A stretch of DNA of 46,237 nt from an uncultured archaeon (GCA_964508365.1 CAZDTP010000022.1:1-46237), one strand, 5' to 3'; positions 30,566 through 35,856 are shown, numbered from the stretch's first letter. A program made the numbers and translations. Notes: generated from the letters alone by a model not told the origin.

Positions 30566-31159
30566 ATGGATCTTGAAGATATAATTGCAAATGTTCGCTC
30601 ATTTGCATATGAAAATTCCATGAAAGACGATATTCACGGTTTTAAACATACTGAAAGAGTATTAAAACAGAGTTTAGAAATAGGAACGAGTTTAAATGCA
30701 AATTTAACAGTAATTAAAATAGCCGCGTTACTTCATGATATTGGTAGAAATATTAAAAACGGGGAATTAGTAGAAAATCACGCTGAAATCTCTGCAGACA
30801 TCGCAGAGGGATTCATTTACAAAAATAAGTTTGACATAACTAAAAATGATATCAAAAATATCCTTCACAGTATCCGATCCCACTCATTTTCGAATGATAA
30901 AATACCCAAAACTCTCGAAGCAAAAATATTGTCCGACGCAGATAAATTGGATGCAATAGGGGCGATTGGTTTATATAGAACTATAGGATTTACTATTCAA
31001 AATCAGGGAGGAATTGACAAAGTAATTCAACATTTGGAAAATAAAATAATGAAATTGAAAGATTTATTATATCTGGATATCAGTAAAAAAATCGCAGAAG
31101 AAAAACAACAAATTATAAAGGATTTCTATGAAAAGGTTAAAGATGAGATTCACCGTTAA
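30566..31159 (+). CDS. HD-domain metal-dependent phosphohydrolase
   Basis: HGFKH..RV, LLHDIG, NHA, SHS, DADKLDAIGA. Confidence 0.9.
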   Translation: MDLEDIIANVRSFAYENSMKDDIHGFKHTERVLKQSLEIGTSLNANLTVIKIAALLHDIGRNIKNGELVENHAEISADIAEGFIYKNKFDITKNDIKNILHSIRSHSFSNDKIPKTLEAKILSDADKLDAIGAIGLYRTIGFTIQNQGGIDKVIQHLENKIMKLKDLLYLDISKKIAEEKQQIIKDFYEKVKDEIHR

Positions 31160-31982: not shown

Positions 31983-33269
31983 ATGTTTATAGAAAAATTA
32001 GGTTTATCACAGGACTCTCTTGTAGATAAAGTCGCAGTCATTACAGGAGCTGGAAGAGGAATCGGGAAGGAACTTGCTAGAGCCTTAGCATGGTTAGGAG
32101 CTAAAGTTATTATCGCTGAAATTAACGATTATGGTAAAGACGTTGAAACTTTAATCAAATCAGAAGGTGGAACCGTTTTATTTGTAAAGACTGATATTTC
32201 TAAAGAAGAAGACATCAGATTCTTAGAAAAAAAAGTTATTAAAACTTTCGGAAAAGTAGATATTTTGATTAATAATGCATATGCTTCTGCATCGGGTTCT
32301 GTATTGGAAATTCCAATGGAAGATTGGGATAAAGTATATCAAGTCAATATCCACGGCGCTGTCTATGCAATTAAAACTTTTTTGCCTTATATGATGAAAC
32401 AGAATGAAGGTGTAATCAATAATCTTACCTCTGCGGAAGGATGGCCATATATGGCACCTTATTTTGCTACTAAAACTGCTCTAACATCAATTACTAAATC
32501 CCTAGCAGCCGAATTAGATGATACCAATATTTCTGTGTCTGTATTTGGACCTGGAATGGTTGATACCCCTGGATTACAGGAATACTGTCGTATTCTAGCT
32601 CCTAAATATGGTATGACAGAAGAAGAGTTTAAGAATCAAGGAGTAAATCCAGGTTACGAAGGATTAATGCCGGCAGATCATTGTGCAGCAGGATGGGCAT
32701 ATACAATAGTACATGCTAAAGAGTATCACGGACAAATTACTGAGCCATTTTCACCACTCTTAAAATTGGGTTTTATTACAACCAAAAAAAAAGAAATTAC
32801 ATCTAAAAAACAAATAATAAAAACTCAAGATGATTTGAATAGTTTTATTTCAGAGACTATTGAAAACTCCAAAAATGTATATGAAATCATAAAAAAACTT
32901 CAACAAGAAACAAATGAATTAGGTTTATTTGCAAGAAAATGGATGAATCGCACTTTTTCGAATAGGTGTGGAATGAAAATTGAAAAATGTGTTGAGGTTA
33001 TAACAGAACTTGACAGTGAAATTCAAAAAATATCTAATCACGTCCAAAACCAAAAATTAGATAACTCTCTTCCTATATTGAAAAAACTATCTTGGTTCAT
33101 ACTCGTTTTGGAAAGCCTTACAAAGCATTTTCGTGAATGTAAAGATGACGCTAAAGGATGGATAAAGGATCCTAATGATTTGAAAGTGGCCTTAGACACA
33201 TTAGATATAAGAGAACAATCAATACTAAATTTAATCTCTAAACTTAATCAAATCGAAAATCTAATCTAA
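31983..33269 (+). CDS. Short-chain dehydrogenase/reductase with a ~160 aa helical C-terminal extension
   Basis: TGAGRGIG, DILINNA, catalytic YFATK, PGMVDT. The tail after ~aa 270 is amphipathic helical. Confidence 0.88.
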   Translation: MFIEKLGLSQDSLVDKVAVITGAGRGIGKELARALAWLGAKVIIAEINDYGKDVETLIKSEGGTVLFVKTDISKEEDIRFLEKKVIKTFGKVDILINNAYASASGSVLEIPMEDWDKVYQVNIHGAVYAIKTFLPYMMKQNEGVINNLTSAEGWPYMAPYFATKTALTSITKSLAAELDDTNISVSVFGPGMVDTPGLQEYCRILAPKYGMTEEEFKNQGVNPGYEGLMPADHCAAGWAYTIVHAKEYHGQITEPFSPLLKLGFITTKKKEITSKKQIIKTQDDLNSFISETIENSKNVYEIIKKLQQETNELGLFARKWMNRTFSNRCGMKIEKCVEVITELDSEIQKISNHVQNQKLDNSLPILKKLSWFILVLESLTKHFRECKDDAKGWIKDPNDLKVALDTLDIREQSILNLISKLNQIENLI

Positions 33270-33276
33270 TTTTTTT

Positions 33277-34515
33277 TTATCCTATTTTTAAAATCATATT
33301 CACTAGAAGAGTAAATTTTTCTTTTGAACCCCAAACTACATAAATTTTATTATCAATGGGAATAGCTACTAGTTTTATAATAGTAATAAAATCATTGCCT
33401 AAATTTATTGCTGAATTAGTTCCTTCTCTAAATTTTACAGATATTTCTGCCCCTAAATAATTCTTTATAGTACTTTCTAAAACTTTTATTTCCTCTAAGT
33501 CAGGATGTTGTACAATTTCATTTTTAAGTTTTTCTGTATACAATCTAAGCTTTACCCGATCCAGGTTTTCTTCATCTTTTATTATTCTATCATACTCAAA
33601 AATTACAATACCACAGTCTTTCTCAAAACCAATGATTTCGTATATATCAATATCAAATTGCATTTTTAGATCTTTATTGGCGTCAGATATTATATGCCAT
33701 CCATTTTCAGGAGTTTCACTTAAAATTAATCTGATTCCTTTTATTATTTTTATTTCATCTTCCTTCTCTTTTATGATTCTATCAATTATATCCGATAATG
33801 GTCTTGCAGAAAAGTATTGAGCACTTTCTGGCAAAATTGATTTTTTTTCAACCCATCCCTTTTCCGTTAATCTTTCAATAATTCGATAAATATGAGTTCT
33901 TTTTAAATCTAGTTCCTTATTTAATTTTCCTACTTTTTCTCCTTCAAAGCCTTTTCTTAATAGAGATAAATAGACTTTCGCATCTGCTTCACTTAAACCA
34001 ATACTTTTTAATCCTAATTTCTCTAATATATGAGAGTTTTTAGATAATATTTTCGGTGTTAAATCCACTTCTTTTTCTCGTATAGTTTCTTGCTTTTCTT
34101 TAATTAAATAAGGTTTTTTAGAGCTAAGATATCTTAATATTTCAGCTGTTTTTGGTACTGCTAATAACAAGAATTGACCTGTGGGATCTTGGGGGATTTT
34201 ACATAGTATTATCCTTTCATTATCTTTAAAGCCAACTATACTTTCTTGGTTGACAATTTTATTTTTAATTTTAATTAGGGACACAGCAATCAGTCTTTCT
34301 AATGTATTTTGTAATATTGTATATTTATTTCCTGAGATAAATAGATACCTTTCCTTTTTAGAACCCCAAATAGATTTAATATGATCGAAATCTTCACTAA
34401 TATCCCAATTATCCGTCGTATAAACAATTTTATTTTTACCTTCAATTATTGCCGCAGCTATAATCTCTGGGTCTTTTTTAATATCGTAATCAATTTTAGA
34501 TATTATTTCTTCCAT
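33277..34515 (-). CDS. Profilin-like N-terminal domain fused to a TrmB-type winged-helix domain and an unknown C-terminal domain
   Basis: ATG 34515 after a GAGGTG RBS. AAAIIEGKNKIVYTTDNWDIS..LFISGNKYTILQNTLERLIA matches the Loki-profilin pattern (AII..G.I..QTENW.I..L.I.G.KY.I..NT.ER.I). LGLS..DAKVYLSLL..RTHIYRIIERLTEKGWV..YFSARPL is a TrmB wHTH. Confidence 0.75.
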   Translation of the reverse strand: MEEIISKIDYDIKKDPEIIAAAIIEGKNKIVYTTDNWDISEDFDHIKSIWGSKKERYLFISGNKYTILQNTLERLIAVSLIKIKNKIVNQESIVGFKDNERIILCKIPQDPTGQFLLLAVPKTAEILRYLSSKKPYLIKEKQETIREKEVDLTPKILSKNSHILEKLGLKSIGLSEADAKVYLSLLRKGFEGEKVGKLNKELDLKRTHIYRIIERLTEKGWVEKKSILPESAQYFSARPLSDIIDRIIKEKEDEIKIIKGIRLILSETPENGWHIISDANKDLKMQFDIDIYEIIGFEKDCGIVIFEYDRIIKDEENLDRVKLRLYTEKLKNEIVQHPDLEEIKVLESTIKNYLGAEISVKFREGTNSAINLGNDFITIIKLVAIPIDNKIYVVWGSKEKFTLLVNMILKIG

Positions 34516-34532
34516 TCTTTCCACCTCATAAT

Positions 34533-34545
34533 AAAAAAAAAAAAA
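34533..34545 (-). terminator. T13 tract after the actin stop codon; possible archaeal terminator
   Basis: 13 consecutive A on the + strand within the short actin to profilin-TrmB spacer. Confidence 0.4.
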
Positions 34546-34560
34546 TAAATTATAATTAAA

Positions 34561-35706
34561 TTAAAAACATCTATGTATTACTTCGGGACCCATTTCCTTA
34601 TATTCTCTTCTCGTTATCCACATTCTATTAAAAGTCTTCAGAGAGCTTAATATTGACCCCCCAATCCAAACCGAATACATTCTCTCAGGTGGAGCTATGA
34701 TTTTTACGTCGATTGACTCTGGAATCAACTCTTTTATCTCCTTTGTTAATCGCTCTTTAACTCCAGGAAACATTGTTGAACCCCCTGAAAGAACGATATT
34801 ACCATACAATTCTCTACGGAGATCTACATCACATTCAGATATTGCTCCTACGATAAGATCATCTAAAGGCTCTAATTCTTTCCCTAATACTGAAGGATTA
34901 AAGAAAGATTCAGGACCTAAAAATCTCTCTAACCCTATGTTGATAACTTCACCATCGGGCATCATATAACTTTTCTCCATACCAGATACTCTCTTCGAAA
35001 GTATTACTTCTTTTTCAGGATCCATGGCTACATAACACAATTTTTCTTTGATATCTCTTACGATCTCCTTTTCTGCTGAACTCGTGAAATTATAACCTCT
35101 CTGTCTTAACAACCTTTGTAAGTAAGTTGTAATATCTCTACCTGCGAGATCAACTCTTTGAATTGCATGACTAAGCGCGAATCCCTCAAAAATCGGAACT
35201 ATATGCGATACTCCATCCCCAATATCTAGAACGCAACCCGTTGTTCTACCAGACGCATAAAGAGATAAAACTGCTTGGGTTGCTACGTAAAGTGCTGGTA
35301 CATTAAATGTTTCAAACATTATTTCTGCTAATTTCTCTCTATTTAACCGAGGATTTAAGGGTGCCTCAGTTAAGAGAATTGGATGTTCTGAGGGATCCAC
35401 TCTAAGATCCGTAAAAAAAGTATAATGCCAAATCCGTTCCATTGAAGGCCAATCATCAACCACTCCATGTTCAATTGGAAAATGAAGGTTCATAAGCCCT
35501 TTGAGTTCTATGGCTTCCTCTCCAATATACCATTCTCTTGAATATTCCTTCACATCAGGCATAATGTTTCCATATTTTGGTTTACCTATTACGGTTGGAA
35601 ACACAGAACGTGGTTGATCTTCACCAGCATAACCATTCTTAGAAATTCCCGTTCCATTATCTAATACTAATGGTCTTCCACTTATAAAATCACCATTGAC
35701 TGACAA
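34561..35706 (-). CDS. Asgard actin (Lokiactin-like, close to eukaryotic actin)
   Basis: [127 protein letters not shown]. Confidence 0.97.
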
Positions 35707-35804: not shown

Positions 35805-35856
35805 TATTTAAATCTTGTCACAACTCTGTGACAAGTATGATCTATCATTGTGACAA
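35805..35856 (-). promoter_or_regulatory. Putative actin promoter: TATA-like TTTAAATA with an adjacent palindrome TTGTCACA-N4-TGTGACAA and a third half-site
   Basis: TTGTCACA 35815-35822, TGTGACAA 35827-35834, a second TGTGACAA 35849-35856, and TTTAAATA on the minus strand at 35812-35805. Confidence 0.55.

Follow-up and report, generated by a model that had tools for sequence, protein, structure and literature searches.

A 46,237-nucleotide stretch of DNA from an uncultured archaeon (GCA_964508365.1 CAZDTP010000022.1:1-46237; hereafter the window) carries on its minus strand a two-gene unit in which an actin gene is followed by a gene for a 412-residue protein that joins an N-terminal profilin domain to a TrmB-type winged helix-turn-helix (wHTH). 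We propose, with a probability of about 50%, that this protein is a dedicated regulator of the actin operon in which it lies and that its profilin head senses actin. The proposal builds on the identities of the domains, on the strict co-inheritance of the two genes and on the conserved position of a palindrome at the actin promoter. From this co-inheritance and from homology we infer that the protein binds the palindrome and that its head binds actin; a coupling of the two would make actin an input to its own transcription.

An actin gene and a profilin-headed regulator gene form a two-gene unit

The actin gene (34561-35706; all features of the unit and its promoter given below lie on the minus strand) encodes 381 residues from a TTG start and matches the Pfam Actin family at E 4e-129; it is referred to here as the spare, or type A, actin. 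It is separated by a 45-nt gap from the regulator gene (33277-34515; 412 codons and a stop codon), whose product has a 100%-identical record (P0003). The open reading frame (ORF) of the regulator spans 33277-34524, and the ATG at 34515 is the likely start, being preceded by the ribosome-binding site GAGGTG (34522-34527). Because the short-chain dehydrogenase gene downstream of the regulator is convergent, the unit comprises two genes. Both ORFs and the gap are thus as in the preliminary description of the locus, which had an actin gene followed about 45 nt downstream by a same-strand protein, and the domain order given there, namely profilin, TrmB wHTH and a C-terminal domain of unknown kind, is supported as well.

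The N-terminal domain of the regulator is a profilin

The profilin domain comprises residues 1-134 (34114-34515) and was identified by both sequence and fold matches. When the first 140 residues were compared with the Protein Data Bank (PDB) by phmmer, Loki profilin-1 (E 7.6e-6), Loki profilin-2 (5.9e-5) and Odin profilin (3.4e-3) were matched. The regulator was also modelled with AlphaFold from an alignment of 64 orthologues (mean predicted local distance difference test score, pLDDT, 75.7), and residues 1-134 of the model fold into a helix, two strands, a helix, five strands and a helix, in keeping with the profilin fold, whose antiparallel sheet lies in the middle with the N- and C-terminal helices on either side. 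Foldseek ranked three Asgard profilins at the top for this model, followed by eukaryotic profilins, and VIA-align superposed it on 5yed with a Z score of 16.9 and a root-mean-square deviation (rmsd) of 2.2 Å over 122 residues, all 50 of the best chains being profilins. The N-terminus had earlier been called profilin-like, with the caveat that such folds overlap with GAF/roadblock-type sensor folds. In a structure search independent of Foldseek, profilins reached Z scores of 11-17, whereas Roadblock/LC7 chains reached at most 10.4 over about 100 residues; because the latter score lower and align over fewer residues, the caveat is settled in favour of profilin. Residues 1-134 of the regulator are a true profilin.

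Both fold and sequence homology connect the head with the stand-alone Asgard profilins of Loki (profilin-1, 5yed/5yee; profilin-2, 5zzb), Odin (5zza), Thor (7pbh) and Heimdall (6yrr), and the motifs NW-x-(I/V)S and G-x-KY-x-(I/V)-(I/L)-Q are shared in the sequence alignments. Asgard profilins are single-domain proteins of 120-150 residues, or about 200 with a tail, that act on filament dynamics, whereas the profilin described here heads a DNA-binding protein and its binding to actin is predicted. Stand-alone profilins of about 200 residues from the same lineage are about 40% identical to regulator residues 16-142, and their E values are 1.5e-13 with Odin profilin and 3.7e-11 with Thor profilin. 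Odin profilin, to which this closest stand-alone paralogue class is matched, was crystallised with actin according to the title of PDB 5zza. The profilin domain of the regulator is under purifying selection, with a mean pairwise identity of 0.45 and conserved motifs.

Relatives of the profilin domain numbered 68 among 1.84 billion representatives. Several of them are fused to other domains, including Ras-type GTPases (in which the profilin is C-terminal), a Sir2 deacetylase, a leucine carboxyl methyltransferase and a zinc ribbon (P0127, P0132, P0133, P0139 and P0150), and, judging by these fusions, these archaea appear to reuse profilin as a module. The genome to which the window belongs encodes three stand-alone profilins, on contigs C7, C25 and C61. 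The stand-alone form of about 200 residues consists of a profilin and a conserved tail of about 60 residues, and a second paralogue with the same tail lies on C61. Its neighbourhood is conserved and includes a TFB gene and a gene for a C2H2 zinc-finger protein (L061:4296-7136 and L073:4292-7114; C25, L092, in the same genome as the window).

The profilin domain was added onto a pre-existing type of TrmB-like regulator

A low-confidence linker (residues 135-168, 34012-34113; pLDDT below 50 over residues 134-166) connects the profilin domain to the TrmB-type wHTH (residues 169-240, 33796-34011), which carries the recognition helix KRTHIYRII. The match to Pfam PF01978 covers residues 172-229 (33829-34002) and scores 45 bits against a cut-off of 25.6, so that the wHTH is confirmed near the place first estimated for it, about 34010-33775; by fold, the domain matches the archaeal wHTH proteins 1ku9 (Z 11.6) and 3r0a. 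The recognition helix, KRT(H/T)IYRII with H or T at position 208, is near-invariant in all orthologues. Behind the wHTH, the model has a long helix (residues 241-266, 33718-33795; 240-265 in the model), which is likely to serve in dimerisation as in the TrmB family, and a C-terminal alpha/beta domain (residues 267-412, 33280-33717). No Pfam family matched residues 246-412, and none of the matches in the structure searches covered the C-terminal domain. A scan of the genome with PF11495, the sugar-binding effector domain of TrmB, did not pick up the regulator gene, and PF11495 clusters appeared among the language-model neighbours of the C-terminal domain at scores of 0.79-0.80 only, which are below trust level.

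TrmB, TrmBL1 and TrmBL2 of Thermococcales have a wHTH of the same family (PF01978) with a long helix behind it, and TrmBL2 (5bpd) was a weak whole-chain Foldseek match to the regulator. In contrast to that family, the wHTH of the regulator is internal rather than N-terminal, a sugar-binding PF11495 C-terminal domain was not detected by the above scan, and the extra domain is a profilin. CodY, which was also among the Foldseek matches, is like the regulator a one-component protein, in which an N-terminal alpha/beta sensor belonging to the profilin-like fold class is joined through a linker to a wHTH. CodY is bacterial, however, responds to a small-molecule ligand, has a GAF fold and not a profilin, and superposes poorly (TM 0.23).

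Two TrmB-like paralogues of about 287 residues are encoded in the same genome (C24:36099-36962, L090; C2:73690-74550, L091). They have the wHTH, the helix and the C-terminal domain in common with the regulator, at 28-30% identity, and are without the profilin head. Therefore, the regulator is a profilin domain added onto a pre-existing regulator type, and these paralogues are the parent family of the fusion. Protein clusters related to the regulator numbered 99, nearly all of 400-430 residues.

The spare-actin promoter has a conserved palindrome next to its TATA box

Upstream of the spare actin gene lies a candidate operator, the perfect 8+4+8 palindrome TTGTCACA-GAGT-TGTGACAA (35815-35834), with the core GTCAC-N6-GTGAC at 35817-35832. 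The TATA box of the promoter, TTTAAATA (35805-35812), follows 2 nt after the 20-nt palindrome, the core being 3-4 nt upstream of it, and is near-invariant in 42 aligned promoters. A distal GTCAC half-site (35850-35854) is located 22 nt upstream of the main palindrome, at offset -42 from the TATA box. Exact copies of the core occur 31 times in 525 kb of orthologous loci, and all 31 are found 81-221 nt before the spare-actin start codon. The one exact core in the 46-kb window is also the only one in the 4.07-Mb genome; as a reversed control likewise gave a single occurrence, uniqueness by itself carries no significance, and it is the place and the conservation of the site that do.

Alignment of the 42 promoters on their TATA boxes gave the consensus TGTcAC-N6-GTGACAA-nA-TTTAAATA, and nothing resembling it was present in the canonical-actin promoters. 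Loci without an exact copy have variants, either GTCGC-N6-GCGAC together with a proximal GTGAC or three half-sites. The half-sites keep an 11-bp phase, being found at -9 in 35 of 41 promoters and at -20 in 27, with weaker ones at -31 and -42 in a minority. The near-invariance of the proximal half-site is in step with that of the recognition helix. Eleven sites in the genome match the core with at most one mismatch, and only the spare-actin site is next to a TATA box, so the regulator looks dedicated to its own cassette.

The motif of TrmBL1, TATCAC-N5-GTGATA (PMC4706686), has TCAC/GTGA half-site cores next to the transcription factor B recognition element (BRE) and the TATA box, as does the candidate operator, with a spacing of N5 there and N6 here. 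Sites of the TrmB family that overlap the BRE and the TATA box repress, and TrmBL1 sites upstream of the promoter activate (PMC4706686). In the spare-actin promoters, an ACAA-nn stretch between the half-site and the TATA box occupies the usual place of the BRE; because the site abuts or overlaps this position, the sign of regulation is unreadable from the sequence. By the distance between TATA box and start codon, the spare-actin genes form three classes, of about 54-68, 106 and 160-207 nt (L016, L019, L022, L023, L036 and others), and some lineages therefore have long 5′ leaders before the spare actin.

Spare actin and regulator are inherited together within one family

A survey of 399 genomes of the phylum (Asgard) detected the full-length regulator in 45 of the 135 genomes of one GTDB family, distributed over four genera, and in none of the 265 other Asgard genomes. 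The rest of that family had, for the most part, only a stand-alone profilin at the survey threshold. Of 50 orthologous loci, 48 have an actin gene immediately upstream of the regulator and in the same orientation, and the two exceptions are cut contigs; thus the linkage to actin that had been proposed for this locus holds in related genomes. Conversely, all 41 of the type A actins listed share a contig with an adjoining regulator gene. The spare actin and the regulator are co-inherited, and neither was found alone in the survey. Five complete or near-complete genomes without the regulator each have one close actin with a different N-terminus, with no regulator beside it and no motif. Some loci carry submitter labels of Thor-, Odin-, Hod- or Hermodarchaeota; these labels were not matched by the genome survey, in which the regulator is confined to the one GTDB family, and an Asgard-wide spread is not claimed.

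The spare actin is a faster-evolving paralogue of the canonical Lokiactin

The spare actin matches eukaryotic actins in the PDB at E values of about 1e-159 and has 83% identity to the canonical Lokiactin that its genome also encodes, the range for the whole type being 81-86%. When genomes were searched with the actin of the regulator-less genomes as query, the matches were bimodal, comprising the canonical type and a second type of 81-86% identity that is restricted to regulator-bearing genomes; the genome of the window carries both. The canonical Lokiactin is 95-100% identical across the family, an extreme conservation, whereas spare actins from different cassettes have identities of about 80-96%. 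A quick tree gave the canonical actins nearly zero branch length and the spare actins longer branches in three groups, without resolved monophyly. The neighbour of the regulator was correctly named an actin in the preliminary description, yet by these comparisons it is an accessory, faster-evolving paralogue and not the main Lokiactin. In the genome of the window, an assembly break divides the canonical Lokiactin (C60:19965-21011 and C103:6637-6783; L096), which extends past the edge of C60 and has its last 49 residues at the start of C103; it has 99% identity to the canonical Lokiactin in a closed relative.

Fixed differences between spare and canonical actins cluster in the D-loop and subdomain 2 (residues 46-56 and 67-87) and include, in eukaryotic numbering, E41G, T43P, E46K and T49S. 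The longitudinal filament contacts of the spare actin may accordingly differ. The barbed-face regions, for which we take the residue ranges contacted by profilin to be those of 2BTF, keep the canonical residues at a level of 0.93-0.97, compared with 0.83 overall.

Proposed mechanism

Most likely, a dimer of the regulator would occupy, through its TrmB wHTH, the GTCAC-N6-GTGAC palindrome abutting the spare-actin TATA box. The bound dimer would control the spare actin and, by read-through past an oligo-T run, its own gene. Such a run, T13 at 34533-34545, lies in the gap between the two genes and is a possible archaeal oligo-T terminator or attenuator; of 32 loci, nearly all have a run of T7-T14 before the regulator gene, behind the actin gene or a small ORF. 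The run would let only a fraction of the transcripts reach the regulator gene. The profilin head, on a flexible linker of about 35 residues, would most likely take monomeric actin, whether spare, canonical or both, at the barbed face in the manner of stand-alone Asgard profilins. Occupancy by actin would then alter the geometry of the dimer or sequester the regulator, changing or removing the DNA-bound form, so that spare-actin output would track the free actin pool. Of the two component claims, binding of the palindrome by the regulator is held with good confidence, and binding of actin by the profilin domain is regarded as probable, though with appreciable doubt.

The logic proposed here is that of MRTF-SRF in animals, where a regulator has a G-actin-binding module and actin genes are among the targets. 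This is an analogy only, as the two systems have no part in common and MRTF-SRF works through RPEL motifs, nuclear shuttling and the MADS-box protein SRF; Pfam listed neither an RPEL motif nor a MADS-box on the regulator, although no dedicated search for them was made.

Evidence against the proposal and alternative explanations

Several observations weigh against the proposed mechanism. The Pfam Profilin model (PF00235) did not match the regulator at E values up to 1; stand-alone Asgard paralogues scored 17-25.7 bits, at or below the cut-off, so the model is weak in this lineage. Among the domains of the regulator, the profilin is the one conserved least, and, given the other profilin fusions, the fold may serve as a general adaptor. 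An AlphaFold prediction of a read-through construct, in which actin with its TAA read as Q was followed by a 15-residue linker and the profilin (14 paired loci, 20 actin rows), gave a pLDDT of 46 and a pTM of 0.29 with the actin unfolded, and is uninformative on binding. On the DNA side, no covariation was observed between operator variants and the recognition helix, H or T at position 208 not following the operator class, and it is co-occurrence that suggests that this protein acts at this site. With the oligo-T run between them, the actin and the regulator gene may be transcribed independently of each other. Finally, two thirds of the genomes of the family lack the cassette, which hence is not essential.

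The low conservation of the head and its lack of a Pfam Profilin match would also suit a local regulator of the spare-actin operon in which the profilin-fold head senses something other than actin, such as phosphoinositide-like lipids, a proline-rich partner or another protein, or only oligomerises, actin being merely the product of the target gene. The fusions of related domains to a GTPase, Sir2, a methyltransferase and a zinc ribbon, which recall roadblock/longin platforms, point in the same direction, as does the report that Asgard profilins bind PIP2 as well (PMC8410842). This alternative is possible but rather unlikely. The domain is about 40% identical to Odin-type stand-alone profilins, and in every genome that has the fusion it occurs only beside an actin gene. 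Moreover, the head is linked to the remainder of the protein at its C-terminal end, and in profilin this end is on the polyproline side, remote from the face that binds actin. A different doubt concerns the DNA. The palindrome could belong to another regulator or form part of a strong promoter (BRE), the fusion protein acting elsewhere and its adjacency being unrelated. The link between protein and site is indeed indirect, the ACAA-nn stretch before the TATA box may be a plain BRE, and operator and helix do not covary. Nonetheless, motif, spare actin and regulator have the same all-or-none distribution, the motif is absent from canonical-actin promoters, and the N6-spaced inverted repeat suits a dimeric TrmB-family wHTH (PMC4706686), which makes this explanation improbable.

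The order of site, actin gene and DNA-binding adaptor gene also brings to mind the type II partition system ParMRC, in which a cis site is followed by an actin-fold ATPase and an autoregulating DNA-binding adaptor. By that comparison, the cassette would serve in partition or positioning instead of feedback, with the spare actin as ParM, the profilin-wHTH protein as ParR, the adaptor connecting filament ends with DNA, and the phased half-sites as parC; the dimer, on a unique chromosomal site, would feed or anchor spare-actin filaments at their barbed ends, and the whole would correspond to ParR/parC/ParM in an archaeon, assembled from parts of eukaryotic type and autoregulating only incidentally. 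ParR uses a barbed-end cleft pocket on ParM, and profilin would target the barbed-end cleft. The site is unique in the genome, the half-sites are phased by 11 bp at -9, -20, -31 and -42, and the cassette is accessory and patchy, with a faster-evolving actin paralogue. Against this, there is one strong palindrome with one or two weak half-sites and not an iteron array, and the fixed 3-4 nt spacing to the TATA box in all promoters points to transcription. The cassette is present in one copy on the chromosome, among partly conserved neighbours (an HD-domain gene and UvrA); the spare actin, at about 80-96% identity among cassettes, is unlike the divergent ParM-type actins and is a close Lokiactin paralogue; and the adaptor is unrelated to ParR. 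We therefore consider a partition role very improbable, and regulation of the spare-actin operon by an actin-sensing profilin head is the reading that we retain.

Significance

A response of transcription to the state of the cytoskeleton is considered particular to eukaryotes, as in G-actin/MRTF-SRF signalling and tubulin autoregulation. The cassette is a candidate for actin feedback on an actin gene in a prokaryote, a Loki-type Asgard archaeon, the binding of actin being predicted. It is compact and can be tested at the bench with a 134-residue domain, a 20-bp site and actin, in the archaeal lineage closest to eukaryotes. If the proposal is true, Asgard profilin would be a reusable signalling module beyond its role as a filament regulator, with which the other fusions agree. 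In addition, some Lokiarchaeia keep two actin isoforms, one nearly frozen and the other fast-evolving and apparently regulated, which bears on the origin of actin paralogy and of isoform-specific control. No profilin-wHTH fusion or such cassette was found mentioned in the literature searched, which included papers on Lokiactin and on crawling motility and the Asgard COG preprint, although papers that are not open and supplements could still hold one; this agrees with the preliminary description, to which no described fusion of this kind was known.

Other genes in and around the cassette

The convergent short-chain dehydrogenase gene (31983-33269) encodes a C-terminal extension of about 200 residues that is predicted to be helix-rich and has no family match. 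An HD-domain protein of about 196-200 residues is encoded a few kb past the regulator in several cassettes (30566-31159 in the window; L001:9386-9976; L002:9842-10432; L004:9097-9699), and a UvrA gene lies upstream of the cassette in the window and in L002. The chromosomal surroundings of the cassette are thus partly conserved.

About half of the cassettes have a micro-ORF of about 64 residues with the motif IK-x-IDGIPCI between the spare actin and the regulator (L001:4755-4949, L002:4729-4923 and about 20 more); it is absent from the window and from the whole genome. A WH2-like LKKT motif in the micro-ORF of other loci was considered and dropped, as it is not conserved. Behind the regulator, many cassettes (L001:6266-6814 and 18 other loci) encode a conserved protein of 182 residues that has no Pfam family. 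It has no similarity to the product of the 182-residue gene that follows the stand-alone profilin, with which it had been compared. The genome of the window encodes a copy of the cassette's 182-residue protein elsewhere, at C30:23961-24512 (L095), with 49% identity.

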